Origin: Eledone cirrhosa
Taxonomy: Eukaryota
Direction: 5' to 3'
Assembly (NCBI GenBank): GCA_964016885.1
Contig: OZ024755.1
Coordinates: 35,836,001 to 35,900,000, forward strand
DNA length: 64,000 bases
Shown here in pieces: positions 4,821 through 52,770 of the stretch; the stretch's first letter is position 1; every line of letters begins with the position of its first letter. Below the pieces are notes generated by a model. It worked only from the letters and a program-made list of their open reading frames with translations, had not been told where the DNA came from and searched no databases. The position numbers and the translations under genes are program-made.

Positions 4821-5031
4821 CCCTTTAGCATTTAAACCAGCCATATCTGGCCAGAATTCTCTCGCCTCTTTCTTTTCAAACTGGCCCCTCATACTGATGT
4901 TAAGGTATTGTTCTCAAAATAAATAATATCAAAATCTCATAAATTTGATATTATGTGAGATAATTATGTGAGGTAAAGGCTTTACCACAAAAATACAATA
5001 GTAAATATAGAGTAATGTAAATGATGAAGGT
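4821..5031 (-). mobile_element. piggyBac-like TTAA MITE, monomer (partial copy just upstream at about 4697-4810)
   Basis: TTAA|CCCTTTAGCATTT ... ATGATGAAGGT|TTAA; contains one copy of the 72-bp satellite unit in reverse orientation. Confidence 0.8.
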
Positions 5032-5258
5032 TTAAAGTGGTATTTCATTCAATGTGCCGAGATAACTCATCCCAACATGTTTAAACTCCATTCCAACAGT
5101 TCATAACTCCAAAGATATGAACTCGATTCTAAAAGTTCACAAATTCTAAGCTAGATGGGGTTACTAGTTTATTGACGTGATGTTTGTCAACCATTGAGAT
5201 ATGTGTTGTTAATAAATGTTTGTTTAAAAAAAATAGTCATTTTACTGAAGAAAAAGCC

Positions 5259-8200: not shown

Positions 8201-8585
8201 TAAAATATACGCAGCAGTCAACACAGCAACTGTAGCTGTGTAAAATATATGCAGCAGTCAACACAGCAACTGTATCTGTGTAAAATATACACAGTAGTCA
8301 ACACAGCAACTGTATCTGTGTAAAATATACGCAGCAGTCAGCACAGCAACTGTAGATGTGTAAAATATACGCAGTGGTCACCACAGCAACTGCAGCTGTG
8401 TAAAATATACATGGCAGTCAACACAGCAACTGTAGATGTGTAAAATATACGCAGTGGTCACCACAGCAACTGCAGCTGTGTAAAATATACATGGCAGTCA
8501 GCACAGCAACTGTAGATGTGTAAACTATACGCAGTGGTCACCACAGCAACTGCAGCTGTGTAAAATATACACGGCAGTTAACGGG
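5259..8585. repeat. 40-bp minisatellite (ACACAGCAACTGTAGCTGTGTAAAATATACGCAGCAGTCA), about 83 units
   Basis: Tandem unit read directly; ends in GGCAGTTAACGGG|TTAA. Confidence 0.97.
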
Positions 8586-8823
8586 TTAAACACACAGATA
8601 CATACAAATGATGGGCTTTCAGAGTTTCTATCAAGCAAATCCACTCCCAAGGCATCGGTCTGTCTGAGGCTATAGCAAAAGACACTTGCCTGAGATGCCA
8701 CACAGAAACAACAAATCTAGAACTACATGCTTTAGAAGTGAACCTCTAAACCACGCAGTAATGTTATATAAGATATATCGAATACTACCACTATGAACAA
8801 CATACTGATATTATTAATAGCAT

Positions 8824-9012
8824 GGCGGTGGATTGGCAGTATCGGTAGAGGGTCGGACGCCGTGTTTTGACGCATAGAGTTACGGCCCTTTCCATTCTGA
8901 GTTCAAATCCCGCCACGGTTAACTTTGCCTTTCATCCTTATGGGCTCGATAGGATGAAGTACCAGTAATACACTGGGATAATTGCTGGCCTTGTGCCTAA
9001 AGAAGAAACAAT
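8824..9012 (+). mobile_element. ~190-bp tRNA-derived SINE (Nin/Deu-domain-like)
   Basis: TGGCAGTATCGG A box, GAGTTCAAATCC B box, CTTTGCCTTTCATCC..GGGGTCGATAAA-like core; ATTATTAATAG repeated at 8810 and 9011. Confidence 0.8.
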
Positions 9013-9024
9013 TATTAATAGTAA

Positions 9025-9211
9025 TAATTGTTTCTACTTTAGGCACAAGGCCAGCAATTACCCAGTGCATTACTGGTACTTTATTTTATCGACCCCGTAA
9101 GGATGAAAGGCAAAGTTAACCGTGGCGGGATTTGAACTCAGATCGTAAAGGGACGTAACTATGCTGGAAAACATGGCGTCCGACTCTCCACCGATACTGC
9201 CAATCCACCGC
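9025..9211 (-). mobile_element. Same ~190-bp SINE, inverted
   Basis: Reverse-complement homology to 8824-9012. Confidence 0.8.
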
Positions 9212-10193
9212 TCTGTATTTATTATTATTATTAATAGTAATAATAGTTTACCACATTTTAGCGAGGAACGGGAAGGGGGGTGGAATTTTTTTTTTTTTTT
9301 TTTTTTTCTTCTTTTAATTATCCCCAATAATCATTGAAAACTATATTTCATTTCTTTTGAGATTCAAAATAAACAATTCAAACACAACTCCGAACATAGT
9401 TTTTACATGATCACAAAAATACACATGTACAGCTGTTTATGTTGTAGTTTTAATAAAATATCTAAAAAAAAATATGTCTCCGAAAATTAAGTTTACAGGA
9501 GAAAATAGATTACACGAAAATGTTTCTCAATGTGCAAAGGAAGACAAAGATATTATTGTTATTTTTATATATTTTTTTTAAACATTGGATTAAAAATAAA
9601 CAACACAAGCAAAATCATTAATAACTGCTTTGAATTGCTATCTCTCTCTCTCTCTCTCCACCCCTTTTCAGTTATACTCGCTCACACAATTCTAGAAAAT
9701 AGGCAAAAAACTCACTTTTGTTTATTAAATTACTATTATAATATAACATCTTTTTGTGTTTTTTGTTTTGTTTAAATTAAATTGAAACCCCCCACCCACC
9801 CACCCCTAACATGCAATGAATTTCAAAGAAAATTTCATTACAAAATTTAATAAATTTTCCCCCTACGCCAACTCTCTTGTAGACATTTTCTAATATATAT
9901 ATATATATTTTTATTTTTATTTTTTGGAGGGTGGGGGTGCGGGGGGGGGGGGGGGGGGGGTGATTGTTATATTTATTTTTGTAAAGAAAATGAAATATAA
10001 TCAATCCAGTCAGTGTCAGTATAGGACAATTATTTTAGCAGACTACATTCAGTTCAACGTTCAGTACATATAGCTGTTAAGTATTGAACTAGAAATTATA
10101 GAGTAACTTTACTTCTCCCTCACTGCCTGATCTTCTGCACGCTATTATATTTAACAGTTCCCATCCCACCCTTGCAAGCAGGGAAAAGTGGAC

Positions 10194-10224
<31 letters not shown>

Positions 10225-10312
10225 GCATAAAATTCACAATAACATCAGTAATGAATGTTTTAGGGCCATTTTCCTTGCTTCAAGCAGTTGTTAAGCCTTA
10301 TGGATCTCTCAA

Positions 10313-12258
10313 CCCTTTAACATTTACTCTATATATACTATTGTATTTTTATGGTAAAGGCTTTACCTCACATAATACCTCATAACATTTACATTACTCT
10401 ATATATACTCTTGTATTTTCACAGTAAAGGCTTTACCTCACATAATATCACACATAACATTTACATTACTCTATATATACTCTTGTATTTTCACAGTAAA
10501 GGCTTTACCTCACATAATATCTCCCATAACATTTACATTACTTTATATATACTATTGTATTTTTATGGTAAAGGCTTTACCTCACATAATATCTCACATA
10601 ACATTTATATTACTCTATATATACTATTGTATTTTCACAGTAAAGACTTTACCTCACATAATATCTCACATAACATTTACATTACTCTATATATACTATT
10701 GTATTTTTATGGTAAAGGCTTTACCTCACATAATATCTCACATAACATTTACATTACTCTATATATACTATTGTATTTTTATGGTAAAGGCTTTACCTCA
10801 CATAATATCTCACATAACATTTACATTACTCTATATATACTGTTGTATTTTCACAGTAAAGGCTTTACCTCACATAATATCTCACATAACATTTACATTA
10901 CTCTATATATACTATTGTATTTTCACAGTAAAGACTTTACCTCACATAATATCTCACATAACATTTACATTACTCTATATATACTATTGTATTTTCACAG
11001 TAAAGGCTTTACCTCACATAATATCTCACATAACATTTACATTACTCTATATATACTATTGTATTTTCACAGTAAAGGCTTTACCTCACATAATATCTCA
11101 CATAACATTTACATTACTCTATATATACTATTGTATTTTTATGGTAAAGGCTTTACCTCACATAATATCTCCCATAACATTTACATTACTCTATATATAC
11201 TATTGTATTTTTATGGTAAAGGCTTTACCTCACATAATATCTCCCATAACATTTACATTACTCTATATATACTATTGTATTTTCACAGTAAAGTCTTTAC
11301 CTCACATAATATCTCACATAACATTTACATTACTCTATATATACTATTGTATTTTCACAGTAAAGGCTTTACCTCACATAATATCTCCCATAACATTTAC
11401 ATTACTCTCTATATACTATTGTATTTTCACAGTAAAGGCTTTACCTCACATAATATCTCCCATAACATTTACATTACTCTATATATACTATTGTATTTTT
11501 ATGGTAAAGGCTTTACCTCACATAATACCTCACATAACATTTACGTTACTCTATATATACTATTGTATTTTCGCAGTAAAGGCTTTACCTCACATAATAC
11601 CTCACATAACATTTACATTACTCTATATATACTATTGTATTTTCACAGTAAAGTCTTTACCTCACATAATATCTCACATAACATTTACATTACTCTATAT
11701 ATACTATTGTATTTTCACAGTAAAGGCTTTACCTCACATAATACCTCACATAACATTTACATTACTCTATATATACTATTGTATTTTTATGGTAAAGGCT
11801 TTACCTCACATAATATCTCACATAACATTTACATTACTCTATATATACCATTGTATTTTCACAGTAAAGGCTTTACCTCACATAATATCTCACATAACAT
11901 TTACATTACTCTCTATATACTATTGTATTTTCACAGTAAAGGCTTTACCTCACATAATATCTCATAACATTTACATTACTCTCTATATACTATTGTATTT
12001 TCACAGTAAAGGCTTTACCTCACATAATATCTCACATAACATTTACATTACTCTATATATACTATTGTATTTTCACAGTAAAGGCTTTACCTCACATAAT
12101 ATCTCACATAACATTTACATTACTCTCTATATACTATTGTATTTTCACAGTAAAGGCTTTACCTCACATAATATCTCACATAACATTTACATTACTCTAT
12201 ATATACTATTGTATTTTCACAGTAAAGGCTTTACCTCACATAATATCTCACATAACAT
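10313..12258 (+). repeat. 72-bp MITE-derived minisatellite, block 1 (about 27 units), beginning at the MITE terminus
   Basis: Unit CATAACATTTACATTACTCTATATATACTATTGTATTTTCACAGTAAAGGCTTTACCTCACATAATATCTCA; array opens with TCAA|CCCTTTAACATTT. Confidence 0.95.
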
Positions 12259-12469
12259 CTCGTATACGAGAGACGTGTGTTGACGTGTGTGAACAAGCTC
12301 GGCTACCGAGTCGGATTTACTTACTCAAAAAGTGAGTTTTGATTAATTTTTTTATACTGTAATATACGTTAACCCCTTGCCTTGGTCGTCAAACTTTGAG
12401 TTTATTTATTTTCGCCCCTTTTTGGGGCGAATTTTCCAGTTAAAAATTTATTACGGCAAACTAATAGAA

Positions 12470-14206
12470 ATGGACGGAATTTTCACATCTCATCCTAACG
12501 TGAAAGCCACGCCCCCTAAGAAAGGTGATACAGAGAAGCTAGAAGCACAAGGCTCTAAGTCTTCCCTCCTCACTTCTGCAAAAGAAACATGGAACACGGA
12601 ATTAAAAGAAAAATTTGTAGAAATGGGTGAAAACCCAGAAAGTCACATAAACGCAGACAAAAACATCAACGACAATAACAGCAATAGTCACAACACCAAC
12701 CAAGGAAAAAATAACGATAACACCAAACAAAGTGAACCCACTACTGGTACCTCCTTTGCACAGGCGGTCCGGAAAACACAAACCTGCAAGCAACTGGACA
12801 TTACAACTCTGAGAGAAAAGATGAAGGAAGCGAAACAGTATGTAACTTTCAAAGAAGGAGGAGACTTCACAATCACCTCCCCACAAGAAATCAAAAGAGA
12901 CACGACGCTAAGAACGATATCTTTCAGAACAATTTCCAACATAACAAGGAAACCAACTCAATTATCCCAAAAAGAGATTGAGCTGGTCCTAAAAAATGTG
13001 TGGAGTGATATATCGTTCATACAAAAAGGGCCACTCTATGGGAATATAACGGTCCTAATGAAGGATCAATTGACGGCCAGGAAATACTCTGTGGCACCAA
13101 TTGTTTCCAAGATATATACATTTTTCCCCACATATTTAGGGAAAAGAACGCAGAAGATAAGGGTCTCCGGAATCCGGCCAAATGCATGCATTTCCTGGGT
13201 ACTAACAGGATTTTTAGAAGACGAGGACGGAATCCTCTCAGTAGGAGAAGTCACCACAGACGTTTTCGGCGGTTTGAGCGTGGAGGTTCTGGTCCAAATG
13301 AGACCAGAACGAATCGCTAGAATACCACAGAGGGTGTCCCTCGATGGAGAAACATTTATATATATTTCAGCCGAGGGTAGGAGGCCCATATGTTACTACT
13401 GTTCAAGCAGGGGTCATCTAAGGGCTGCTTGTCCTCAATTGACAAAAAAAAAGGCTCTTTTGCCTACACCCCACACACCACCACCGCCACCACCACCACC
13501 ACCTCCACCACCACCACCACAACAACAACAAAAACAACAGGGAAAAATAACACAAGACACGGCCCCACCCAAAACAACTCCCAAAACACACACAAATACA
13601 ACAAAACCCCAAAATACACCACTACCCGACAGCACGGACGAGGACCCAGCGGAAACGGCACCTAGTGACGAAGAGGGGGAACCCTTCCAACCTGTAAAAA
13701 GGAAAAAAAGAAAGCACCACTCGAACATAAACGAAACAAACACACAACCACCAACAAAAACAAAACAAACAGAACAAACAAAATCCGCCCCACCCCAAAA
13801 CATAACACATACAACAAAACGTAAGCACACACAAGAACAACAAACAAACACAACACAAATAAAACAGTATACATACATTAACACAAATAACAAAGAACTA
13901 GTAAAAACAATACACAAAGACCCTTTGGTGGAAACTGAAGGGCAATTCTTTGCAAGCGCGGCCAACAAACCGCATTTAAAAATGATAAGACTCCCAATGG
14001 ACACCTATGCAAAACTAAGAGAGAACTTTCCTGAGGACGTGGGGAAAACATGTACTCGACCCTATAACCGCGTCCTCTTGAAACGTTTCCCCACCCACAC
14101 CTCACCAAACACCCCCACTCCACCACAGAACAACACCCCACCAAACAACCCCTCCAATACGCCCATGGATATTGTGCAACCTGCTCCTCAGGAGCCGAAC
14201 AGGTAG
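12470..14206 (+). CDS. LINE ORF1 nucleic-acid-binding protein (578 aa from first ATG; frame open from 12377)
   Basis: SFAQAV motif, CX2CX4HX4C knuckle CYYCSSRGHLRAAC, polyproline run, basic KRKKRK; position upstream of ORF2. Confidence 0.88.
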   Translation: MDGIFTSHPNVKATPPKKGDTEKLEAQGSKSSLLTSAKETWNTELKEKFVEMGENPESHINADKNINDNNSNSHNTNQGKNNDNTKQSEPTTGTSFAQAVRKTQTCKQLDITTLREKMKEAKQYVTFKEGGDFTITSPQEIKRDTTLRTISFRTISNITRKPTQLSQKEIELVLKNVWSDISFIQKGPLYGNITVLMKDQLTARKYSVAPIVSKIYTFFPTYLGKRTQKIRVSGIRPNACISWVLTGFLEDEDGILSVGEVTTDVFGGLSVEVLVQMRPERIARIPQRVSLDGETFIYISAEGRRPICYYCSSRGHLRAACPQLTKKKALLPTPHTPPPPPPPPPPPPPPQQQQKQQGKITQDTAPPKTTPKTHTNTTKPQNTPLPDSTDEDPAETAPSDEEGEPFQPVKRKKRKHHSNINETNTQPPTKTKQTEQTKSAPPQNITHTTKRKHTQEQQTNTTQIKQYTYINTNNKELVKTIHKDPLVETEGQFFASAANKPHLKMIRLPMDTYAKLRENFPEDVGKTCTRPYNRVLLKRFPTHTSPNTPTPPQNNTPPNNPSNTPMDIVQPAPQEPNR

Positions 14207-14227
14207 GTCCTTCCTCTTTTAACCAAC

Positions 14228-17200
14228 ATGGCTGATATAAGAGTTGGGTTTCTGAATGTACGTGGCCTGGGACTGTCTTGGAAACAAGGCAAACTTTTAA
14301 ACGATCTCAGGTCACATAGAATGGATGTAATGGCTATTTGCGAGTCCAGGATCAGCAGCGAGCACCAACTGGCGCCCCTCTTCGACGACTTTGAGATCTT
14401 CGCATCTCTCTGTCAACCGGGGGGTGGGGGTGGAGTTGTCGTTCTGCTGCGAAAACACCTGGGCCTCGCCATACAGAAGGTGCACCTGGACCCGGAGGGT
14501 CGACTGGTGGTTTTAGACGTCGGCAGTAGTGAAAGTGGAGCCCTTAGACTAATAGCTGTGTACGCCCCTTTTTGGGCAGCGCGGCCGGAATACTTCCAAC
14601 GTCTGGAAACTTTTCTGGGAACGTCCCGCTCCTTGCTTTTAGTGGGGGACTGGAATGGTATCCTGGATGCACGTTGGGACTATGTAGGGGCATGTGCCAA
14701 TAGAGGGGGGTGTAAAAGCCTCAAAAGGTTAATCGGCCGATTTGACCTGGCCGATAGATATCGACTAGATTTTCCGACTGTACCACTATGGACGTGGACC
14801 AATCGCAGTGGAACATCTAGGTCGTACCTAGATAGGGTCCTAGTTAGAGAGAACGATAGGGACACATTTAGCTGTCCAAAAATGTTCATGGTTGACTATT
14901 CGGATCACAAGTTAGTGACCTGCATAGCCAACCTTGATAGAACCCATAGACAGGGACCCGGTTACTGGAAGCTGAACTTGTCCTTACCGAGAAGCAAAGC
15001 TTACAGTAAACGGATTAGCACGTTAGTTAAGCAGAATTTGACAGGAGCAATTGTCAACAACAGGTGGTGGAGCTCTCTTAAGAGAGCAATTAGAATAGAA
15101 TCGATAGGTTTTAGTCAGGAATTAGCAAGGGATAGGAACAAGACGGAAAGGGAATTAGTAGATAGAGTAGAAGAGGCGATTAGGAGTGGCAATGTAGCCG
15201 GCGTGCTGGCATCAAGAATGGCCTTAGACCAGTTCTTTGAGGTGAAGCATGAAGGCTGCGTTGTCAGGAGTAAAATACGTGCTCTGGGTAATGAGGGAGC
15301 CAAAGCTGTAAGCTGGGCCCGAGTGACAGAGGCAAAAAGTGGGAACAAGTCCACGATTCGGTCTTTGAAGGACCAGGATGGGCGTGTGATCCTTGAACCT
15401 GGGCAGATGTGTGCGGCCTTTCAGCGGCACTTTGCACGACTGTTCGAGAGGGGCGGCGCGCCGGGTGAGACTATGGATTTCAATCCATACCTCGACGGTC
15501 TGCCGCGCCTCTCGGACGCGGAGGCGAAGTCCTGCGAAAGGACGATTTCAGCTGCTGAGATAGGGGCGGCGCTGAGCCAATGCGGCAAACGCAAATCCCC
15601 GGGTCTCGATGGTCTACCATACGAGCTATATGTAGCGATGCCGGACTTGTTCTCCGATATCCTCGAAGCGGTCTACTGCAACTGGCAGCAGAACGGGAGA
15701 ATTCCCAGTTCTGTGACCAAGGGCGTAGTTACGCTGGTGAGGAAGGATGAGAACAAGGGGGATGACATAAGTAACTTCAGGCCCATAACTCTGCTAAATA
15801 CAGAGTTAAAGATTTTGGCCAAGGTGTTAGCGAAGAGGTTGGCGCTTGTCGTTGGAAACCTGGTGGGAGAAGCGCAGACATGCGCAATCCCGTCCAGGTC
15901 CATTCACGACAATCTCCACCTTATGCGATACATCATAGAGAGGGTAGGGAATGAACCCGGCTTTGGTGGGGCCCTGATCAACTTGGATCAATCTAAAGCT
16001 TTCGATAGGGTTGACCATCGTTACCTGGATGCGGTGCTCGCGGCGGCAGGCTTCGGACCCGTTTTCAGGGGTTGGATTGCTGCGATGCACAGCAGCAACG
16101 TCTGCTCAAGGGTCAAGGTGAACGGCCACCTCTCGGAGCCGTTCCAAATCATGCGATCCATCCGACAGGGATGCCCTCTCTCCTCCCTACTGTATGTGCT
16201 GGCTCTTGAGCCACTACTGCGGAAGTTGGAGCGGTTGCAGGGCATCCCTTTGGAACCGGGATTGCAGAAAGCGGCGTCGGCCTACGCCGATGACGTGACA
16301 GTAATGGTGTCGAAAACCTCGCAAATCGGTGAGATCGGCACCTTACTGGAGGAATATGAAAGGTTTACAGGAGCCAAGCTGAACCGGGACAAGTCCGTCG
16401 GTTTGCAACTCGGAACATGGAGAGGCAAACCGATGCCCTCCAACGACGTCGTCGGACGCTGGACGGAGGGCCCGGTGAAGCTGCTTGGGGTCTGGTTCGG
16501 ACCAGACCTCCAGGTGGAGAAAAACTGGAACGAGGTAACGGCCAGGGTGTTTGCACTCACCCAGAAGTGGGCCCAGTGCAAACTATCCCTGAAAGGTCGA
16601 GCGGAGGTGGCGAATACTTATATAGCATCCGTCATCTACTACCGCTTGACCGTCGTGCCTTGCCCAGTGAAAAGACTCGCCAAAATGGAGTGCGCGCTGT
16701 TCCAATTTCTTTGGAACAAGCGGACCCCTTTGGTGAGGAGATCCATCTGCTGTCAACACCCTTCGAAAGGAGGGCTGGGGATGCCGTGGCTACAGATGCG
16801 TAAACACGCATTAAGGCTACGGCACCTCCAGGTATTCCTCACCGGTCAACCGGTGTGGGCCCCGTTTGTGAGGCGAGCCTTTCCCAGACTCGTCTCGCTC
16901 ACCGAGCTGCAATCCTGGGTCAAGCAAAGACCGAGAAAAGTGGGCGACTGGCACATTGAATGTGCCCAGGCGCTCACGGCCCTCTGGAAAGCGGACCCGG
17001 CAATCAGTGGAGACTCCACCTCGACATTCTATAGAGGGTTGGTACGCAGCAGGTGCGACGATGCTCTCGGAGAAGCTCTAGGCATGGAGGAAGATGAACT
17101 GGCCAGTCTGTTCGGTGGGACGTTTGGCCCTGGACCGATGGACAACTTCCAAAAGTCCCTGGCTTGGCAGTGCTACCGAGGGGCTCTACCCGTTCGAGAC

Positions 17201-17665
17201 AAGCTCCACAGACATGGGAGCCTGGGTAGAGATCCTTTGAATAAGATCTGTCCGAGATGCGTGCATGATGACGAAACCGTTGCGCACGCATTCGTACACT
17301 GCCCAGGCATTGCTGACCTGTGGGGCTATGTGGAACGACTACTGTCGAGGGTGGGACCAATCCGGTTGACCACCGAGTCCATTGTCACGATCAAACCGCC
17401 TCCCCCTTTCAAAAACGAAGGAGAGGCGGTTTTTCTCTGTGTGGTAGCCATGGCTAAAGAAGTTGTATGGTGGACGAGGCTGAAAGGGCTGAGGTCAGAC
17501 ACCTTTCTCTCCGGCCAACAACTGGTCCCCTTTTTCAAATACCATTTTAAAAGAAGGATCAGAATGGAGAGAGAGGTGCTCTACCCCAGCAAGTTTTATG
17601 AAAGGTGGGTGAAAGTAGGGAGAATGGCCAGAGTGAATGGGTCTTCTCTCTATATCAGCCTGTAG
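14228..17665 (+). CDS. LINE ORF2: APE endonuclease, reverse transcriptase and C-terminal CCHC (1145 aa)
   Basis: APE motifs LNVRGL, ES, VYAP, GDWN, YLDRV, SDH; GPGYWKLN; RT motifs KSPGLDG, FRPITLLN, DQSKAFDRV, RQGCPLS, YADD; CPRC-X8-H-X4-C. Confidence 0.97.
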   Translation: MADIRVGFLNVRGLGLSWKQGKLLNDLRSHRMDVMAICESRISSEHQLAPLFDDFEIFASLCQPGGGGGVVVLLRKHLGLAIQKVHLDPEGRLVVLDVGSSESGALRLIAVYAPFWAARPEYFQRLETFLGTSRSLLLVGDWNGILDARWDYVGACANRGGCKSLKRLIGRFDLADRYRLDFPTVPLWTWTNRSGTSRSYLDRVLVRENDRDTFSCPKMFMVDYSDHKLVTCIANLDRTHRQGPGYWKLNLSLPRSKAYSKRISTLVKQNLTGAIVNNRWWSSLKRAIRIESIGFSQELARDRNKTERELVDRVEEAIRSGNVAGVLASRMALDQFFEVKHEGCVVRSKIRALGNEGAKAVSWARVTEAKSGNKSTIRSLKDQDGRVILEPGQMCAAFQRHFARLFERGGAPGETMDFNPYLDGLPRLSDAEAKSCERTISAAEIGAALSQCGKRKSPGLDGLPYELYVAMPDLFSDILEAVYCNWQQNGRIPSSVTKGVVTLVRKDENKGDDISNFRPITLLNTELKILAKVLAKRLALVVGNLVGEAQTCAIPSRSIHDNLHLMRYIIERVGNEPGFGGALINLDQSKAFDRVDHRYLDAVLAAAGFGPVFRGWIAAMHSSNVCSRVKVNGHLSEPFQIMRSIRQGCPLSSLLYVLALEPLLRKLERLQGIPLEPGLQKAASAYADDVTVMVSKTSQIGEIGTLLEEYERFTGAKLNRDKSVGLQLGTWRGKPMPSNDVVGRWTEGPVKLLGVWFGPDLQVEKNWNEVTARVFALTQKWAQCKLSLKGRAEVANTYIASVIYYRLTVVPCPVKRLAKMECALFQFLWNKRTPLVRRSICCQHPSKGGLGMPWLQMRKHALRLRHLQVFLTGQPVWAPFVRRAFPRLVSLTELQSWVKQRPRKVGDWHIECAQALTALWKADPAISGDSTSTFYRGLVRSRCDDALGEALGMEEDELASLFGGTFGPGPMDNFQKSLAWQCYRGALPVRDKLHRHGSLGRDPLNKICPRCVHDDETVAHAFVHCPGIADLWGYVERLLSRVGPIRLTTESIVTIKPPPPFKNEGEAVFLCVVAMAKEVVWWTRLKGLRSDTFLSGQQLVPFFKYHFKRRIRMEREVLYPSKFYERWVKVGRMARVNGSSLYISL

Positions 17666-17902
17666 GTGAAAGAAGAGGAAAAAGCGGAGACGAGGGAAGC
17701 ACCTACTCTTTGTGCTCCTGAGGAGAAGGGTTACACATTTTTTCCGGGGTGTGTGCGACCCATGTTAATGCCCCCTCCCTATTGAGGACTTCGTTTGTTG
17801 TTGTTATTTCATTGTTATATTTTTGTACTCGTTAATTATATGTAAACTTCCCCCCTTGTATCTGTCCCTACCTTTTGTGCCCTAGTGGCAAATAAAGAAA
17901 CC

Positions 17903-19189
17903 ACTCTATATATACTATTGTATTTTCACAGTAAAGGCTTTACCTCACATAATATCTCACATAACATTTACATTACTCTATATATACTATTGTATTTTCA
18001 CAGTAAAGGCTTTACCTCACATAATATCTCACATAACATTTACATTACTCTATATATACTATTGTATTTTTATGGTAAAGGCTTTACCTCACATAATATC
18101 TCCCATAACATTTACATTACTCTATATATACTATTGTATTTTTATGGTAAAGGCTTTACCTCACATAATATCTCCCATAACATTTACATTACTCTATATA
18201 TACTATTGTATTTTCACAGTAAAGTCTTTACCTCACATAATATCTCACATAACATTTACATTACTCTATATATACTATTGTATTTTCACAGTAAAGGCTT
18301 TACCTCACATAATATCTCCCATAACATTTACATTACTCTCTATATACTATTGTATTTTCACAGTAAAGGCTTTACCTCACATAATATCTCCCATAACATT
18401 TACATTACTCTATATATACTATTGTATTTTTATGGTAAAGGCTTTACCTCACATAATACCTCACATAACATTTACGTTACTCTATATATACTATTGTATT
18501 TTCGCAGTAAAGGCTTTACCTCACATAATACCTCACATAACATTTACATTACTCTATATATACTATTGTATTTTCACAGTAAAGTCTTTACCTCACATAA
18601 TATCTCACATAACATTTACATTACTCTATATATACTATTGTATTTTCACAGTAAAGGCTTTACCTCACATAATACCTCACATAACATTTACATTACTCTA
18701 TATATACTATTGTATTTTTATGGTAAAGGCTTTACCTCACATAATATCTCACATAACATTTACATTACTCTATATATACCATTGTATTTTCACAGTAAAG
18801 GCTTTACCTCACATAATATCTCACATAACATTTACATTACTCTCTATATACTATTGTATTTTCACAGTAAAGGCTTTACCTCACATAATATCTCATAACA
18901 TTTACATTACTCTCTATATACTATTGTATTTTCACAGTAAAGGCTTTACCTCACATAATATCTCACATAACATTTACATTACTCTATATATACTATTGTA
19001 TTTTCACAGTAAAGGCTTTACCTCACATAATATCTCACATAACATTTACATTACTCTCTATATACTATTGTATTTTCACAGTAAAGGCTTTACCTCACAT
19101 AATATCTCACATAACATTTACATTACTCTATATATACTATTGTATTTTCACAGTAAAGGCTTTACCTCACATAATATCTCACATAACAT
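17903..19189 (+). repeat. 72-bp minisatellite, block 2 (about 18 units); duplicate of 10972-12258
   Basis: Same ordered rare variants as the end of block 1 (AAAGTCTTT, TTACGTTAC, TTCGCAGT, TATACCATT, 2-bp deletion). Confidence 0.95.
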
Positions 19190-19400
19190 CTCGTATACGA
19201 GAGACGTGTGTTGACGTGTGTGAACAAGCTCGGCTACCGAGTCGGATTTACTTACTCAAAAAGTGAGTTTTGATTAATTTTTTTATACTGTAATATACGT
19301 TAACCCCTTGCCTTGGTCGTCAAACTTTGAGTTTATTTATTTTCGCCCCTTTTTGGGGCGAATTTTCCAGTTAAAAATTTATTACGGCAAACTAATAGAA

Positions 19401-21137
19401 ATGGACGGAATTTTCACATCTCATCCTAACGTGAAAGCCACGCCCCCTAAGAAAGGTGATACAGAGAAGCTAGAAGCACAAGGCTCTAAGTCTTCCCTCC
19501 TCACTTCTGCAAAAGAAACATGGAACACGGAATTAAAAGAAAAATTTGTAGAAATGGGTGAAAACCCAGAAAGTCACATAAACGCAGACAAAAACATCAA
19601 CGACAATAACAGCAATAGTCACAACACCAACCAAGGAAAAAATAACGATAACACCAAACAAAGTGAACCCACTACTGGTACCTCCTTTGCACAGGCGGTC
19701 CGGAAAACACAAACCTGCAAGCAACTGGACATTACAACTCTGAGAGAAAAGATGAAGGAAGCGAAACAGTATGTAACTTTCAAAGAAGGAGGAGACTTCA
19801 CAATCACCTCCCCACAAGAAATCAAAAGAGACACGACGCTAAGAACGATATCTTTCAGAACAATTTCCAACATAACAAGGAAACCAACTCAATTATCCCA
19901 AAAAGAGATTGAGCTGGTCCTAAAAAATGTGTGGAGTGATATATCGTTCATACAAAAAGGGCCACTCTATGGGAATATAACGGTCCTAATGAAGGATCAA
20001 TTGACGGCCAGGAAATACTCTGTGGCACCAATTGTTTCCAAGATATATACATTTTTCCCCACATATTTAGGGAAAAGAACGCAGAAGATAAGGGTCTCCG
20101 GAATCCGGCCAAATGCATGCATTTCCTGGGTACTAACAGGATTTTTAGAAGACGAGGACGGAATCCTCTCAGTAGGAGAAGTCACCACAGACGTTTTCGG
20201 CGGTTTGAGCGTGGAGGTTCTGGTCCAAATGAGACCAGAACGAATCGCTAGAATACCACAGAGGGTGTCCCTCGATGGAGAAACATTTATATATATTTCA
20301 GCCGAGGGTAGGAGGCCCATATGTTACTACTGTTCAAGCAGGGGTCATCTAAGGGCTGCTTGTCCTCAATTGACAAAAAAAAAGGCTCTTTTGCCTACAC
20401 CCCACACACCACCACCGCCACCACCACCACCACCTCCACCACCACCACCACAACAACAACAAAAACAACAGGGAAAAATAACACAAGACACGGCCCCACC
20501 CAAAACAACTCCCAAAACACACACAAATACAACAAAACCCCAAAATACACCACTACCCGACAGCACGGACGAGGACCCAGCGGAAACGGCACCTAGTGAC
20601 GAAGAGGGGGAACCCTTCCAACCTGTAAAAAGGAAAAAAAGAAAGCACCACTCGAACATAAACGAAACAAACACACAACCACCAACAAAAACAAAACAAA
20701 CAGAACAAACAAAATCCGCCCCACCCCAAAACATAACACATACAACAAAACGTAAGCACACACAAGAACAACAAACAAACACAACACAAATAAAACAGTA
20801 TACATACATTAACACAAATAACAAAGAACTAGTAAAAACAATACACAAAGACCCTTTGGTGGAAACTGAAGGGCAATTCTTTGCAAGCGCGGCCAACAAA
20901 CCGCATTTAAAAATGATAAGACTCCCAATGGACACCTATGCAAAACTAAGAGAGAACTTTCCTGAGGACGTGGGGAAAACATGTACTCGACCCTATAACC
21001 GCGTCCTCTTGAAACGTTTCCCCACCCACACCTCACCAAACACCCCCACTCCACCACAGAACAACACCCCACCAAACAACCCCTCCAATACGCCCATGGA
21101 TATTGTGCAACCTGCTCCTCAGGAGCCGAACAGGTAG
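19401..21137 (+). CDS. LINE ORF1, copy 2
   Basis: Translation identical to copy 1. Confidence 0.88.
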   Translation: MDGIFTSHPNVKATPPKKGDTEKLEAQGSKSSLLTSAKETWNTELKEKFVEMGENPESHINADKNINDNNSNSHNTNQGKNNDNTKQSEPTTGTSFAQAVRKTQTCKQLDITTLREKMKEAKQYVTFKEGGDFTITSPQEIKRDTTLRTISFRTISNITRKPTQLSQKEIELVLKNVWSDISFIQKGPLYGNITVLMKDQLTARKYSVAPIVSKIYTFFPTYLGKRTQKIRVSGIRPNACISWVLTGFLEDEDGILSVGEVTTDVFGGLSVEVLVQMRPERIARIPQRVSLDGETFIYISAEGRRPICYYCSSRGHLRAACPQLTKKKALLPTPHTPPPPPPPPPPPPPPQQQQKQQGKITQDTAPPKTTPKTHTNTTKPQNTPLPDSTDEDPAETAPSDEEGEPFQPVKRKKRKHHSNINETNTQPPTKTKQTEQTKSAPPQNITHTTKRKHTQEQQTNTTQIKQYTYINTNNKELVKTIHKDPLVETEGQFFASAANKPHLKMIRLPMDTYAKLRENFPEDVGKTCTRPYNRVLLKRFPTHTSPNTPTPPQNNTPPNNPSNTPMDIVQPAPQEPNR

Positions 21138-21158
21138 GTCCTTCCTCTTTTAACCAAC

Positions 21159-24100
21159 ATGGCTGATATAAGAGTTGGGTTTCTGAATGTACGTGGCCTG
21201 GGACTGTCTTGGAAACAAGGCAAACTTTTAAACGATCTCAGGTCACATAGAATGGATGTAATGGCTATTTGCGAGTCCAGGATCAGCAGCGAGCACCAAC
21301 TGGCGCCCCTCTTCGACGACTTTGAGATCTTCGCATCTCTCTGTCAACCGGGGGGTGGGGGTGGAGTTGTCGTTCTGCTGCGAAAACACCTGGGCCTCGC
21401 CATACAGAAGGTGCACCTGGACCCGGAGGGTCGACTGGTGGTTTTAGACGTCGGCAGTAGTGAAAGTGGAGCCCTTAGACTAATAGCTGTGTACGCCCCT
21501 TTTTGGGCAGCGCGGCCGGAATACTTCCAACGTCTGGAAACTTTTCTGGGAACGTCCCGCTCCTTGCTTTTAGTGGGGGACTGGAATGGTATCCTGGATG
21601 CACGTTGGGACTATGTAGGGGCATGTGCCAATAGAGGGGGGTGTAAAAGCCTCAAAAGGTTAATCGGCCGATTTGACCTGGCCGATAGATATCGACTAGA
21701 TTTTCCGACTGTACCACTATGGACGTGGACCAATCGCAGTGGAACATCTAGGTCGTACCTAGATAGGGTCCTAGTTAGAGAGAACGATAGGGACACATTT
21801 AGCTGTCCAAAAATGTTCATGGTTGACTATTCGGATCACAAGTTAGTGACCTGCATAGCCAACCTTGATAGAACCCATAGACAGGGACCCGGTTACTGGA
21901 AGCTGAACTTGTCCTTACCGAGAAGCAAAGCTTACAGTAAACGGATTAGCACGTTAGTTAAGCAGAATTTGACAGGAGCAATTGTCAACAACAGGTGGTG
22001 GAGCTCTCTTAAGAGAGCAATTAGAATAGAATCGATAGGTTTTAGTCAGGAATTAGCAAGGGATAGGAACAAGACGGAAAGGGAATTAGTAGATAGAGTA
22101 GAAGAGGCGATTAGGAGTGGCAATGTAGCCGGCGTGCTGGCATCAAGAATGGCCTTAGACCAGTTCTTTGAGGTGAAGCATGAAGGCTGCGTTGTCAGGA
22201 GTAAAATACGTGCTCTGGGTAATGAGGGAGCCAAAGCTGTAAGCTGGGCCCGAGTGACAGAGGCAAAAAGTGGGAACAAGTCCACGATTCGGTCTTTGAA
22301 GGACCAGGATGGGCGTGTGATCCTTGAACCTGGGCAGATGTGTGCGGCCTTTCAGCGGCACTTTGCACGACTGTTCGAGAGGGGCGGCGCGCCGGGTGAG
22401 ACTATGGATTTCAATCCATACCTCGACGGTCTGCCGCGCCTCTCGGACGCGGAGGCGAAGTCCTGCGAAAGGACGATTTCAGCTGCTGAGATAGGGGCGG
22501 CGCTGAGCCAATGCGGCAAACGCAAATCCCCGGGTCTCGATGGTCTACCATACGAGCTATATGTAGCGATGCCGGACTTGTTCTCCGATATCCTCGAAGC
22601 GGTCTACTGCAACTGGCAGCAGAACGGGAGAATTCCCAGTTCTGTGACCAAGGGCGTAGTTACGCTGGTGAGGAAGGATGAGAACAAGGGGGATGACATA
22701 AGTAACTTCAGGCCCATAACTCTGCTAAATACAGAGTTAAAGATTTTGGCCAAGGTGTTAGCGAAGAGGTTGGCGCTTGTCGTTGGAAACCTGGTGGGAG
22801 AAGCGCAGACATGCGCAATCCCGTCCAGGTCCATTCACGACAATCTCCACCTTATGCGATACATCATAGAGAGGGTAGGGAATGAACCCGGCTTTGGTGG
22901 GGCCCTGATCAACTTGGATCAATCTAAAGCTTTCGATAGGGTTGACCATCGTTACCTGGATGCGGTGCTCGCGGCGGCAGGCTTCGGACCCGTTTTCAGG
23001 GGTTGGATTGCTGCGATGCACAGCAGCAACGTCTGCTCAAGGGTCAAGGTGAACGGCCACCTCTCGGAGCCGTTCCAAATCATGCGATCCATCCGACAGG
23101 GATGCCCTCTCTCCTCCCTACTGTATGTGCTGGCTCTTGAGCCACTACTGCGGAAGTTGGAGCGGTTGCAGGGCATCCCTTTGGAACCGGGATTGCAGAA
23201 AGCGGCGTCGGCCTACGCCGATGACGTGACAGTAATGGTGTCGAAAACCTCGCAAATCGGTGAGATCGGCACCTTACTGGAGGAATATGAAAGGTTTACA
23301 GGAGCCAAGCTGAACCGGGACAAGTCCGTCGGTTTGCAACTCGGAACATGGAGAGGCAAACCGATGCCCTCCAACGACGTCGTCGGACGCTGGACGGAGG
23401 GCCCGGTGAAGCTGCTTGGGGTCTGGTTCGGACCAGACCTCCAGGTGGAGAGAAACTGGAACGAGGTAACGGCCAGGGTGTTTGCACTCACCCAGAAGTG
23501 GGCCCAGTGCAAACTATCCCTGAAAGGTCGAGCGGAGGTGGCGAATACTTATATAGCATCCGTCATCTACTACCGCTTGACCGTCGTGCCTTGCCCAGTG
23601 AAAAGACTCGCCAAAATGGAGTGCGCGCTGTTCCAATTTCTTTGGAACAAGCGGACCCCTATGGTGAGGAGATCCATCTGCTGTCAACACCCTTCGAAAG
23701 GAGGGCTGGGGATGCCGTGGCTACAGATGCGTAAACACGCATTAAGGCTACGGCACCTCCAGGTATTCCTCACCGGTCAACCGGTGTGGGCCCCGTTTGT
23801 GAGGCGAGCCTTTCCCAGACTCGTCTCGCTCACCGAGCTGCAATCCTGGGTCAAGCAAAGACCGAGAAAAGTGGGCGACTGGCACATTGAATGTGCCCAG
23901 GCGCTCACGGCCCTCTGGAAAGCGGACCCGGCAATCAGTGGAGACTCCACCTCGACATTCTATAGAGGGTTGGTACGCAGCAGGTGCGACGATGCTCTCG
24001 GAGAAGCTCTAGGCATGGAGGAAGAGGAACTGGCCAGTCTGTTCGGTAGGACGTTTGGCCCTGGACCGATGGACAACTTCCAAAAGTCCCTGGCTTGGCA

Positions 24101-24596
24101 GTGCTACCGAGGGGCTCTACCCGTTCGAGACAAGCTCCACAGGCATGGGAGCCTGGGTAGAGATCCTTTGAATAAGATCTGTCCGAGATGCGTGCATGAT
24201 GACGAAACCGTTGCGCACGCATTCGTACACTGCCCAGGCATTGCTGACCTGTGGGGCTATGTGGAACGACTACTGTCGAGGGTGGGACCAATCCGGTTGA
24301 CCACCGAGTCCATTGTCACGATCAAACCGCCTCCCCCTTTCAAAAACGAAGGAGAGGCGGTTTTTCTCTGTGTGGTAGCCATGGCTAAAGAAGTTGTATG
24401 GTGGACGAGGCTGAAAGGGCTGAGGTCAGACACCTTTCTCTCCGGCCAACAACTGGTCCCCTTTTTCAAATACCATTTTAAAAGAAGGATCAGAATGGAG
24501 AGAGAGGTGCTCTACCCCAGCAAGTTTTATGAAAGGTGGGTGAAAGTAGGGAGAATGGCCAGAGTGAATGGGTCTTCTCTCTATATCAGCCTGTAG
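21159..24596 (+). CDS. LINE ORF2 (APE-RT-CCHC), copy 2
   Basis: 1145 aa; four amino-acid differences from copy 1 (K/R, L/M, D/E, G/R). Confidence 0.97.
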   Translation: MADIRVGFLNVRGLGLSWKQGKLLNDLRSHRMDVMAICESRISSEHQLAPLFDDFEIFASLCQPGGGGGVVVLLRKHLGLAIQKVHLDPEGRLVVLDVGSSESGALRLIAVYAPFWAARPEYFQRLETFLGTSRSLLLVGDWNGILDARWDYVGACANRGGCKSLKRLIGRFDLADRYRLDFPTVPLWTWTNRSGTSRSYLDRVLVRENDRDTFSCPKMFMVDYSDHKLVTCIANLDRTHRQGPGYWKLNLSLPRSKAYSKRISTLVKQNLTGAIVNNRWWSSLKRAIRIESIGFSQELARDRNKTERELVDRVEEAIRSGNVAGVLASRMALDQFFEVKHEGCVVRSKIRALGNEGAKAVSWARVTEAKSGNKSTIRSLKDQDGRVILEPGQMCAAFQRHFARLFERGGAPGETMDFNPYLDGLPRLSDAEAKSCERTISAAEIGAALSQCGKRKSPGLDGLPYELYVAMPDLFSDILEAVYCNWQQNGRIPSSVTKGVVTLVRKDENKGDDISNFRPITLLNTELKILAKVLAKRLALVVGNLVGEAQTCAIPSRSIHDNLHLMRYIIERVGNEPGFGGALINLDQSKAFDRVDHRYLDAVLAAAGFGPVFRGWIAAMHSSNVCSRVKVNGHLSEPFQIMRSIRQGCPLSSLLYVLALEPLLRKLERLQGIPLEPGLQKAASAYADDVTVMVSKTSQIGEIGTLLEEYERFTGAKLNRDKSVGLQLGTWRGKPMPSNDVVGRWTEGPVKLLGVWFGPDLQVERNWNEVTARVFALTQKWAQCKLSLKGRAEVANTYIASVIYYRLTVVPCPVKRLAKMECALFQFLWNKRTPMVRRSICCQHPSKGGLGMPWLQMRKHALRLRHLQVFLTGQPVWAPFVRRAFPRLVSLTELQSWVKQRPRKVGDWHIECAQALTALWKADPAISGDSTSTFYRGLVRSRCDDALGEALGMEEEELASLFGRTFGPGPMDNFQKSLAWQCYRGALPVRDKLHRHGSLGRDPLNKICPRCVHDDETVAHAFVHCPGIADLWGYVERLLSRVGPIRLTTESIVTIKPPPPFKNEGEAVFLCVVAMAKEVVWWTRLKGLRSDTFLSGQQLVPFFKYHFKRRIRMEREVLYPSKFYERWVKVGRMARVNGSSLYISL

Positions 24597-24833
24597 GTGA
24601 AAGAAGAGGAAAAAGCGGAGACGAGGGAAGCACCTACTCTTTGTGCTCCTGAGGAGAAGGGTTACACATTTTTTCCGGGGTGTGTGCGACCCATGTTAAT
24701 GCCCCCTCCCTATTGAGGACTTCGTTTGTTGTTGTTATTTCATTGTTATATTTTTGTACTCGTTAATTATATGTAAACTTCCCCCCTTGTATCTGTCCCT
24801 ACCTTTTGTGCCCTAGTGGCAAATAAAGAAACC

Positions 24834-26252
24834 ACTCTATATATACTATTGTATTTTCACAGTAAAGGCTTTACCTCACATAATACCTCACATAACATTT
24901 ACATTACTCTATATATACTATTGTATTTTCACAGTAAAGGCTTTACCTCACATAATATCTCACATAACATTTACATTACTCTATATATACTATTGTATTT
25001 TCACAGTAAAGGCTTTACCTCACATAACATTTACATTACTCTATATATACTATTGTATTTTCACAGTAAAGGCTTTACCTCACATAATACCTCACATAAC
25101 ATTTACATTACTCTATATATACTATTGTATTTTCACAGTAAAGGCTTTACCTCACATAATATCTCACATAACATTTACATTACTCTATATATACTATTGT
25201 ATTTTCACAGTAAAGGCTTTACCTCACATAACATTTACATTACTCTATATATACTATTGTATTTTCACAGTAAAGGCTTTACCTCACATAATATCTCACA
25301 TAACATTTACATTACTCTATATATACTATTGTATTTTCACAGTAAAGGCTTTACCTCACATAATATCTCACATAACATTTACATTACTCTCTATATACTA
25401 TTGTATTTTCACAGTAAAGGCTTTACCTCACATAATACCTCACATAACATTTACATTACTCTATATATACTATTGTATTTTCACAGTAAAGGCTTTACCT
25501 CACATAATATCTCACATAACATTTACATTACTCTATATATACTATTGTATTTTCACAGTAAAGGCTTTACCTCACATAATACCTCACATAACATTTACAT
25601 TACTCTATATATACTATTGTATTTTCACAGTAAAGGCTTTACCTCACATAATACCTCACATAACATTTACATTACTATATATATACTATTGTATTTTCAC
25701 AGTAAAGGCTTTACCTCACATAATATCTCATATAACATTTACATTACTCTATATATACTATTGTATTTTCACAGTAAAGGCTTTACCTCACATAATACCT
25801 CACATAACATTTACATTACTCTATATATACTATTGTATTTTCACAGTAAAGGCTTTACCTCACATAATACCTCACATAACATTTACATACTCTATATATA
25901 CTATTGTATTTTTATGGTAAAGGCTTTACCTCACATAATATCTCACATAACATTTACATTACTCTATATATACTATTGTATTTTCACAGTAAAGGCTTTA
26001 CCTCACATAACATTTACATTACTCTATATATACCATTGTATTTTCACAGTAAAGGCTTTACCTCACATAACATTTACATTACTCTATATATACTATTGTA
26101 TTTTCACAGTAAAGGCTTTACCTCACATAATATCTCACATAACATTTACATTACTCTATATATACTATTGTATTTTCACAGTAAAGGCTTTACCTCACAT
26201 AATATCTCACATAACATTTACATTACTCTATATATACTATTGTATTTTCACA
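24834..26252 (+). repeat. 72-bp minisatellite, block 3, including 60-bp short units
   Basis: Some units lack the 12-bp CATAATATCTCA sub-repeat; no second MITE terminus seen. Confidence 0.93.
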
Positions 26253-26356
26253 TACTATTTACTATTATATTTTCATGGCTATTTCAAATGTATTTCCCCT
26301 GCTATCTTCTGGGGCAACACTATCCATTCTGTCTGCTAGGCTCTAACTTGTATAAG

Positions 26357-26551
26357 GGCGGAGGATTGACAGTATCGGTAGAGGGTTGGATGCCCCCCAT
26401 GCTTTGCAACATAGAGTTACGCCACTTTATGATCTGAGTTGAAATCGCGCTGAGGTTAACTTTGTCTTTCATCCTTACGGGATTGATAACATAAAGTACC
26501 AGTAATGTACTAGGATAATTGCTGGCCTTATGCCAAAAGTAGAAACAATTA
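26357..26551 (+). mobile_element. ~190-bp tRNA-derived SINE
   Basis: Homologous to 8824-9012. Confidence 0.75.
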
Positions 26552-26650
26552 TTATCATTACTAGCAGAAAACCACCTTTGGGGCGGTTTTCTGCTAGCAT
26601 GTATAGTGTACATATTGATATTATACGCAAATATATATATATGTAGATAT

Positions 26651-27003
26651 GGAGGCACATGGCTTAGTGGTTAGAGCATTGGCCTTGCAATCGAAAGGTT
26701 GTGAGTTCAATTCTCAGACCGGGTGATGTGTTGTATCCTTGAGCAAGACACTTTATTTCACATTGCTCCAGTTTACTCAGCTGTAGAAATGAGATGATAA
26801 GGACTGGGGTCCCTATCATTCCACTGCAAAGTGGACGTGTAGACGCCACGGCAAAAAAGCACCCAGCACTCACTGTAAATGAGGTTGGTGTTAGGAAGGG
26901 CATCCAGCTGTAGAAATCAAGCCAAGATCAGTTCCCGTCTCACCCTTGCAAGCAGGGAAAAAGCGGACGTAAAATGAAATGATGATGAAATGATGATGAT
27001 GAT
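26651..27003 (+). mobile_element. CORE-type SINE with RTE tail
   Basis: GGAGGCACATGGCTTAGTGG start, B box, central core, (GAT)n end. Confidence 0.85.
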
Positions 27004-27233
27004 ATGTCAAATGAAATCATAATTTACAATATACACAGAAATTGAACGAAGTCTGTGTTACACTCTCTTCTGTAATCAGTAAAGTAATTCATGATACATT
27101 TAAAAAAGACGATATTATATATGAACTGCATTACGGCAAAATTTTAGGGAAACGAAAAAGAAGAAAATTAGTGACAGAAATATAAACCGTATATAACGAT
27201 GCAAATATATGAATGTTTATATAAGTGATGTAA

Positions 27234-27577
27234 TCATCATGATCATCATTACATTTTACGTCCGCTTTTTCCCTGCTTGCAAGGGTGGGATGGGAACTGA
27301 TTCTGGCTTGATTTCTACAGCTGGATGCCCTTCCTAACACCAACTTCATTTACAGTGAGTGCTGGGTGCTTTTTTGTCGTGGCACCTCCACTACCACTTT
27401 ACAGTGGAATGATAGGGACCTCAGTCCCTATCATCTCATTTCTACAGCTGAGTAAACTGGAGCAATGTGAAATAAAGTGTCTTGTTCAAGTAAACAACAC
27501 ATCACCCGGTCTGAGAATTGAACTCACAACCTTTCGATTGCAAGGCCAATGCTCTAACCACTAAGCCATGTGCCTCC
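27234..27577 (-). mobile_element. CORE-type SINE with RTE tail, inverted
   Basis: Reverse-complement homology to 26651-27003. Confidence 0.85.
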
Positions 27578-27730
27578 AGAAATCTAATGAGTGTTATAAT
27601 ATAACGGGCACTAACCGGAAGCGTTGACATTTGAAAATTTTAAAGACGTGAATCTTAAAATAAGCAATACTTTATATATAAGAATATTTATGTTTAATCA
27701 AGAGCTACGAAATTTAGTAGATAAAATACA

Positions 27731-27917
27731 TAATTGTTTCTACTTTAGGCACAAGGCCAGCAATTACCCAGTACATTACTGGTACTTATTTTATCGACCC
27801 CGTAAGGATGAAGGGCAAAGTTTACCTCGGCGCGATTTGAACTCAGACTGTAAAAGGACATAACTATGCTAGAAAGCATGACGTCCGACCCTCTACCGAT
27901 ACTGCCAATCCACCGCC
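27731..27917 (-). mobile_element. ~190-bp tRNA-derived SINE
   Basis: Homologous to 9025-9211. Confidence 0.78.
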
Positions 27918-28042
27918 AAGTAGATAAATTACATAATATTCATTCACCCTTTATTCAAAGTAATCCAACTTATTTTACTAACGGGATAAAAAATTATAAA
28001 ATGGACGCTGTCCCACACTTCTCCCTTTATTATAGTATAGAA

Positions 28043-28233
28043 GGGTGGTGGATTGGTAGTATCGGTAGAGGGTAGGACGCCATGCTTTGTAGCATAGAGT
28101 TATGGCCCTTTATGATCTGAGTTCAAATCCCGCCGAGGTTAACTTTGCCTTTCATCCTTACGGGGTCGATAAAATAAAGTACCAGTAATGTACTGGGATA
28201 ATTGCTGGCATTGTGCCTAAAGTAGAAACAATT
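28043..28233 (+). mobile_element. ~190-bp tRNA-derived SINE
   Basis: Homologous to 8824-9012. Confidence 0.78.
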
Positions 28234-28356
28234 ATACTATAGATTAAGTATTTAATGGGAGTCATATTTTACTATAGCAATGTTTCAGTTCAAATATACT
28301 CTAAGTAGTGAAAATGTGTAGCAGAAATCTAATGAATGATTTATAAATCTGATGTG

Positions 28357-52728: not shown

Positions 52729-52770
52729 TATGTGAATGTGTATATATATATATATGCGTGAATGTATATA

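Follow-up and report, generated by a model that had tools for sequence, protein, structure and literature searches.

The long interspersed element (LINE) Tx1L has its target in the internal tandem repeats of the transposon Tx1D and makes a target-site duplication (TSD) when it inserts. Elements of the Tx1 clade that target non-autonomous DNA transposons are known from Xenopus and from crocodilians (PMC4494074), the described pairs being Tx1L in the non-autonomous piggyBac element Tx1D, Tx1-Mar in Mariner-N4_AMi and Tx1-9_AMi in Harbinger (PMC4494074; accessible parts of PMC6719617 and PMC1635306), and according to the accessible text of PMC4494074 and PMC1950540 the target of Tx1L is a specific sequence within Tx1D. 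Here we describe a comparable locus in a 64,000-nucleotide stretch of the Eledone cirrhosa genome (contig OZ024755.1, positions 35,836,001 to 35,900,000; hereafter the window, with coordinates counted from its first letter), in which two copies of a LINE interrupt a minisatellite of 72-bp units that starts at the end of a miniature inverted-repeat transposable element (MITE). We propose, with a probability of roughly 0.55, that this minisatellite, borne by a decayed MITE end, received a single insertion of a young LINE, likely of the Tx1 clade, that a tandem duplication of the LINE with 1.3 kb of array followed, and that the LINE is likely to prefer the repeat site genome-wide.

A single LINE insertion, apparently duplicated within a 72-bp minisatellite

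Around the LINEs, Tandem Repeats Finder delimited three arrays of the 72-bp unit (10324-12258, 17903-19189 and 24834-26252); a fourth array (57623-58703) lies on the minus strand. Together the arrays account for 8.6% of the non-LINE DNA of the window. On the plus strand, the left minisatellite of about 27 units (10326-12258) leads up to LINE copy 1 (12259-17900), which is followed by the middle array (17903-19189), LINE copy 2 (19190-24831) and the right array (24834-26252), the last with about 20 units, four of which are 60 bp long. Each LINE is 5,642 bp in length, is followed by the dinucleotide CC (17901-17902 after copy 1) and carries two intact open reading frames (ORFs) of 578 and 1145 amino acids (aa), ORF1 and ORF2, located at 12470-14206 and 14228-17665 in copy 1 and at 19401-21137 and 21159-24596 in copy 2. 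The APE endonuclease, reverse transcriptase (RT, with the motif YADD) and C-terminal zinc finger (zf-RVT) domains of ORF2 pass the Pfam cut-offs, and the catalytic motifs are present. In both copies the junction consists of CATAACAT, the LINE ending in AATAAAGAAA, CC and then ACTCTATAT, with seven bases of the unit, TTACATT, gone; empty units read TTACATT at this place in the window and in 136 raw reads of X11, one of the sequencing runs considered below. The site, TAACAT/TTACATT/ACTCT, corresponds to about positions 11-18 of the MITE and occurs once per unit. These junctions and ORFs bear out an earlier note on this DNA, which had described two intact LINEs interrupting the array at the same unit position. 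In a 72-bp array a 65-bp TSD would be possible instead of a 7-bp deletion. However, position 53 is not the same in the unit that precedes copy 1 and the one that follows copy 2, and a TSD of 137 bp fails at position 6; the 7-bp deletion is preferred for these reasons. The LINE opens with a perfect 12-bp palindrome (12259-12270), behind which lie two small hairpins. Its 5' end gave no Rfam match and the fold (z = -1.43) was not above chance, and the idea of a ribozyme or strong structure there was rejected.

The two LINEs stem from one insertion followed by a tandem duplication. A block of 6,931 bp (10972-17902) is found again directly behind itself (17903-24833), and at this offset 10972-17954 equals 17903-24885 at all but five sites; the 18 array units before each LINE are identical variant for variant, the middle array being an exact unit-by-unit copy of 10972-12258. 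Such unit-for-unit identity rules out two independent insertions at one phase, and what the earlier note had called probable, a single insertion behind both copies, can be stated more firmly. All five differences fall within 692 bp of ORF2 (23452-24143 in copy 2; P = 0.0004 if placed at random, by simulation), and four of them alter a residue. Their density in this tract, 0.7%, is about that between the window and the family majority elsewhere (4 in 603 nt), and at 17117 the letter of copy 2 is the only one found in contigs of runs X5, X1 and X2. We infer that a tract of about 700 bp in copy 2 arose by conversion or, during polishing, from reads of a different copy.

There is an appreciable minority chance that the second copy is an assembly artefact in which two haplotypes, or reads, were joined through the array. 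Some 6.2 kb without a single difference, 1,287 bp of them variable minisatellite, and the clustering of the five differences in the manner of polishing errors are in keeping with such a joining; however, the array too should differ between two haplotypes, and a very recent unequal exchange would look just as identical. The breakpoint of the duplication lies at most 52 bp beyond the 3' end of the LINE and thus falls into the first unit of the roughly 20 that follow. It would suit a second retrotransposition at the same locus, either with a 1,287-bp TSD or from an RNA begun in the upstream array and inserted at a site kept at the 3' end of copy 1; in addition, a relative inserted in a U1 gene has a 163-bp TSD and sequential tandem insertion has been reported for SINEU-3 (PMC4494074). 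We nevertheless hold this to be very improbable, as the duplication would have to be eight times as long as the longest one observed, whereas unequal exchange requires no special step.

The decayed MITE end (10309-10325) reads TCAA in place of TTAA and continues with CCCTTTAACATTT, and ACATT is missing from the first unit. Beyond the right array there is a diverged remnant of the MITE subterminal segment (26253-26280); since no MITE body, second terminal inverted repeat (TIR) or TTAA follows 26252 (no 11-mer is common to two monomer bodies and 26252-30150), the array hangs on this one end. With a terminus of TCAA next to CCC, the LINE locus itself lacks the TTAA duplication of piggyBac-type elements, and the arrangement of a Tx1C-like composite element, in which array and LINE would be enclosed by two TIRs and a TTAA duplication, is absent. 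The outer tier of the nest is thus what remains of a MITE, and the locus does not amount to a complete composite transposon. Of the earlier proposal of an array inside a piggyBac-like TTAA MITE, the one decayed end survives, whereas the far end, the body and the TTAA are missing.

Other members of this MITE family, which measure 190-215 bp and have the ends CCCTTTA...TAAAGGG, occur at 4821, 41542, 60795-61541 and, on the minus strand, 58708, with fragments at 4696, 40387 and 62490. Short TIRs beginning with CCC are of the piggyBac type. Sequence comparison shows that the plus-strand monomer at 4821-5032 begins with CCCTTTAG after TTAA and has a decayed far TIR, and that the compound element at 60795-61541, likewise on the plus strand, has both termini with TTAA on either side. 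The plus-strand monomer at 41542-41734 is intact from CCC to GGG, with an imperfect 14-bp TIR that matches at 12 of 14 positions, and its TTAA duplication within a 61-bp repeat unit is evident against the adjacent empty units of that host repeat. The 72-bp unit begins inside the MITE TIR. The earlier note had traced it to the subterminal segment of the monomers at 4821, 41542 and 60795, and it is indeed terminal or subterminal at 4821 and 60795, whereas at 41542 no more than about half of the unit is left. As 4,946 X11 reads carry TTAACCCTTTAGCATTTACATT before the unit, the MITE end is common in the X11 genome. The left and right arrays have three exact unit types and several rare variants in common, none of which they share with the array at 57.6 kb, and look local in origin. 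The latter array, which the earlier note overlooked, is LINE-free and lies on the minus strand (57623-58708) on another MITE end (57519-58708); it has 15 units with variants of its own, none of a type identical to those at the LINE locus, as well as higher-order repeats, and its MITE is cut off at 57519 by another repeat. No transposase was seen by eye among the 13 window ORFs of at least 150 aa, four of which were scanned for domains, and neither the MITE nor the 72-bp unit had a match in the compared loci L001-L115.

The repeat site in sequencing reads and in related elements

Reads from four of 13 runs (X1, X2, X5 and X11) were placed on 12224-17945 at 85% likeness, runs X3, X4, X6-X10, X12 and X13 being outside this test. 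In X5, four ORF1 contigs with 0-2 differences have depths of 1,959-2,244 against 7-19 for four divergent contigs, a ratio of about 160 (range 104-310) in which the divergent contigs are assumed to be low-copy; in X11, one restriction fragment (13185-13440, 36,972 molecules) has variants at 71% and 44%. The LINE family looks multicopy in one organism (organism D). The end of the LINE is reached by four of the 24 contig pieces listed, three of which continue into the 72-bp repeat at the same phase, and none of the four shows another flank. X1 record 1 (12229-12831) and X2 record 9 (12229-12778) start exactly 30 nt inside the repeat and run without a gap across the 5' junction, while X1 record 8 (17587-17924) passes through the 3' junction and 24 nt into the repeat. 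A start 30 nt out is expected of a 31-mer graph where pure repeat branches into the LINE, 31 being what we take to be the word length of these contigs.

At four sites (12620, 12666, 12733 and 12749) the two 5' pieces have the letter of the X5 majority, which neither window copy has, and hence they do not represent the window allele; the window letters at 12666, 12733 and 12749 are rare or unseen in X5 contigs. The ratio of repeat depth to LINE depth is 106 in X1, 138 in X2 and 474 in X5. In a model that treats X1 and X2 as dilute DNA from a genome like that of X5, the probability that a junction word is counted at least twice is <=0.005 for one locus and about 0.2-0.96 for 50 loci. Should this assumed model hold, it would mean that tens of copies share the junction; at ordinary coverage X1 and X2 would hold one or two copies each. 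It is this last figure, with depths of 10 and 4.6, that would accord with a non-specific LINE having landed once in an abundant AT-rich repeat, the X1 and X2 contigs then being alleles of this locus in close relatives, and a single landing in arrays that fill so much of the window would not be surprising. However, the fact that X1 and X2 carry the X5 majority alleles and not those of the window speaks against it, their repeat:LINE ratios are of the same order as that of X5, as would befit dilute DNA of a multicopy family, and under the assumed model the junction of a single locus in dilute DNA would almost never assemble. We regard such a single chance landing as improbable.

Several observations weigh against a preference for the repeat site. 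The overlaps of 30, 30 and 24 nt are shorter than a bridging standard of 31 nt on both sides, X2 record 16 ends exactly at 17900, either at a branch or by dropout, no X5 junction piece is among the contig pieces listed, and 36,840 contig pieces and 3,550 loose-end rows lie beyond those listed. One X11 fragment (119 reads, one start) leads from 29 nt like the LINE 3' end via TCTATCTATCT to LINE sequence, not repeat, and could belong to any subfamily. An older, 5'-truncated relative with 74% identity (28357-29330, plus strand) sits in unique DNA outside the 72-bp repeat, as had been noted before, between the two halves of a 15-bp TSD (28342-28356 and 29333-29347), which also favours the single chance landing discussed above. 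Depth is nearly flat from 5' to 3' (10.2 v 12.2 in X1, 4.6 v 4.8 in X2), which suggests that few copies are truncated, as one would expect from DNA-level copying and equally from a processive enzyme. Finally, among the closest relatives with flanks, which are 41% identical, three outer 3' flanks have no sequence in common past the motif at the end of the element, and one of them resembles two 5' flanks only in pieces of dispersed repeats.

Dozens of these 41%-identical relatives are full-length and are found on animal-like contigs in a bacterial bin (G001; L072-L109, L112, L113, L116-L135), which account for 40 of the 44 loci of one search. They form head-to-tail arrays with a period of about 6.4-6.85 kb, one of them about 70 kb long and some repeating one identical 5' truncation, set in ordinary AT-rich DNA without a common target. 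The 11-17-bp spacers within them were considered as target duplications, but this found no support, because the motif is missing at the two placeable outer 5' ends (L120, L126) and varies within a contig.

Arrays of this kind lend weight to another explanation, namely that a single insertion, made by chance, was multiplied as DNA, by tandem or ectopic exchange between arrays or by movement of a MITE-array-LINE composite, with no targeting by the endonuclease. The window itself contains a duplicated LINE plus array, the junctions are identical to the base, and the flat depth along the element in X1 and X2 is equally in its favour. On the other hand, a locus with one decayed MITE end and no second TIR is not mobile as a composite now, the left and right arrays look local, and, provided that the window comes from organism D, the three window letters that are rare or unseen in X5 imply that it does not represent the main pool in collapsed form. 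On this evidence we consider DNA-level amplification doubtful. The read data do not tell whether the LINE was repeatedly retrotransposed to its target or a single insertion was copied as DNA, and the window alone cannot show targeting, because it holds only one insertion and the arrays are a sizeable part of its non-LINE DNA. Of the independent insertions at one site of one repeat that would mark a sequence-specific LINE, the window offers one event; three of the four listed end-reaching contigs show the same phase, with short overlaps, and may or may not stem from independent insertions. For the suggestion of the earlier note that a LINE uses a MITE-borne repeat as its target, the same-phase contigs in X1 and X2 and the signs of multiple copies in X5 and X11 are favourable, whereas the single insertion in the window and the similar picture that DNA-level copying could give are not; an independent invertebrate case is plausible.

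Separately, X2 contains very deep relatives of ORF2 over 14400-17200 (summed depth up to 156,000) with almost no matching ORF1 or untranslated region, which suggests that the X2 organism has a sister subfamily with different ends.

Affinities of the LINE and other repeats of the window

The succession of ORF1 and an ORF2 with N-terminal APE, RT and C-terminal zinc finger is that of the L1 group. The nearest ORF2 proteins are an unnamed NCBI protein (70-76%) and a protein of Argonauta hians (68% over the RT), which makes an octopod host very likely, and among solved structures in the PDB human L1 ORF2p is best with 184 bits, R2 proteins reaching at most 85. In metagenome contigs ORF2 scores 465 bits against a U2-inserted LINE (L008) and 404 against a U1-inserted one (L110), both obtained with the same program and database size, and these values, compared with 184 bits for human L1, favour the Tx1 clade, to which the LINE likely belongs on sequence grounds. 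ORF1 has one CCHC knuckle, CYYCSSRGHLRAAC, at aa 308-321, which is below the Pfam cut-off (E 0.007), and its Atlas neighbours at 0.90-0.92 include zf-CCHC clusters. A CCHC knuckle in ORF1 is typical of Tx1 and absent in mammalian L1. In a quick RT tree of 41 rows, with no named Tx1 or L1 reference, the element groups with octopod proteins (99) and with the array-forming family (100), the base being unresolved.

Members of the Tx1 clade often show target preference (accessible parts of PMC4494074 and PMC4640811). L008 (5815-5977) and L004 (4675-4885) are Keno-like LINEs in genes for the small nuclear RNA (snRNA) U2, 28-30% identical to ORF2 over nearly its full length; each has a poly-A end followed by U2, and L008 starts after the first part of U2, as described for Keno. 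A 30%-identical LINE in L110 lies at a U1 snRNA gene within a 163-bp TSD (3070-3232 and 10008-10170, 99.4% identical), and L022 likewise ends in U1 at about the same position; One scan of 20 loci brought out three of these snRNA-flanked cases (L004, L008 and L022), L110 having been recognised separately. In the accessible text of PMC4640811 (2015) only Dada-U1, a DNA transposon, is given as targeting U1. The LINE 3' end had no exact match in metagenome contigs, and no relatives were found in viral contigs.

Elsewhere in the window there is a 543-aa RT ORF with a PHD finger (53126-54757, minus strand), presumably RTE-like, beside a 770-bp inverted repeat (52374-53141). Further minisatellites lie at 94-1356 (34-bp unit), 5262-8582 (40), 30155-31711 (48), 31973-38325 (43), 41224-41541 (61) and 48413-49082 (27). 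The 48- and 43-bp arrays, which run in opposite directions, are similar to one another and match parts of a dispersed repeat (at 49765 and 59050), and array growth from mobile-element segments therefore looks common in the window. Inverted pairs of dispersed repeats resembling short interspersed elements, 88-94% identical, occur at 26650-26997 and 27233-27578, and at 8810-9225.

Comparison with described systems and a possible mechanism

The closest described counterpart is Tx1L/Tx1D of Xenopus laevis, in which a two-ORF APE-type LINE likewise occupies a fixed site in a non-autonomous piggyBac-type transposon (accessible text of PMC4494074 and PMC1950540). In contrast to that system, the site here is at the inner edge of the TIR and has been multiplied as a 72-bp minisatellite, the host element lacks its far end, seven bases were lost in place of a target duplication, and specificity is proposed from sequence data. 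If targeting holds, the mode of action is like that of Tx1L/Tx1D; the locus is not a Tx1C-like composite. Tx1-Mar and Tx1-9_AMi of crocodilians resemble the present case as Tx1 families that favour non-autonomous DNA transposons (Mariner-N4_AMi and Harbinger; PMC4494074), but their hosts are vertebrates, the transposons belong to other superfamilies and the targets are dispersed, whereas a tandem array is used here. Keno, Kibi and Koshi of the Tx1 clade also take multicopy repeats as targets, these being, however, U2 snRNA genes or microsatellites, and in the quick tree the window element is not nested among the U2-inserted Keno-like loci. DTC84 of the clam Donax trunculus and Tetris of Drosophila virilis are alike in having tandem repeats inside non-autonomous TIR elements (accessible parts of PMC3879986 and PMC4079207), and MITEs with tandem repeats are known in molluscs (PMC3879986, same part); the accessible text mentions no LINE on those repeats, and the unit here, unlike theirs, includes part of the TIR. 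For Octopus vulgaris, 13 L1-Tx1 families with recent activity (421 insertions) are reported besides 6 families of piggyBac, with no target analysis of the L1-Tx1 families in the accessible part of PMC13282606; the accessible parts of PMC8869645 and PMC4585706 contain passing mentions only. We found no cephalopod case in the literature searched, most subscription journals, Repbase and the supplement of PMC4494074, whose target tables may list invertebrate cases, being outside the search. On balance we lean slightly towards a cephalopod parallel of the Xenopus Tx1L/Tx1D targeting, a strategy already known in frogs and crocodiles.

A succession of events at the locus may be envisaged as follows. 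The array would have grown by slippage between TAACATT of the TIR and a look-alike sequence 72 bp inward, and the same growth may have happened separately at 57623-58708. The LINE would have arrived after the MITE end had decayed, and hence would not have been carried in as a composite DNA transposon. Target-primed reverse transcription and specificity led by the endonuclease are known from Tx1L and R1-type elements (accessible parts of PMC1950540 and PMC1919474), and by analogy the APE domain may nick at TAACAT/TTACATT/ACTCT and prime reverse transcription there. The insertion was probably accompanied by the small target deletion of seven bases, and small target deletions have been described for SINEU-2 (PMC4494074). 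Unequal exchange between array units may then have doubled the LINE plus array, after which the tract of about 700 bp would have been overwritten from another family member, in the cell or during assembly polishing. A bolder version, which we put forward tentatively and think rather unlikely as a whole, is that octopods, apart from frogs, evolved a LINE of at least 100 copies whose endonuclease reads a site in the MITE terminal repeat, with minisatellites made by slippage renewing the target and nicks beside an inserted copy seeding duplication of LINE plus array.

If targeting fails, the locus would be an ordinary nested insertion with a tandem duplication. If it is true, cephalopods would have a young and intact LINE whose defined target, about 20 bases long, adds a new APE specificity beside those of Tx1L, R1Bm and L1, and insertion into the repeat of another transposon would have arisen in molluscs too. 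The growth of MITE-born minisatellites would then be tied to the survival of a LINE in octopod genomes.

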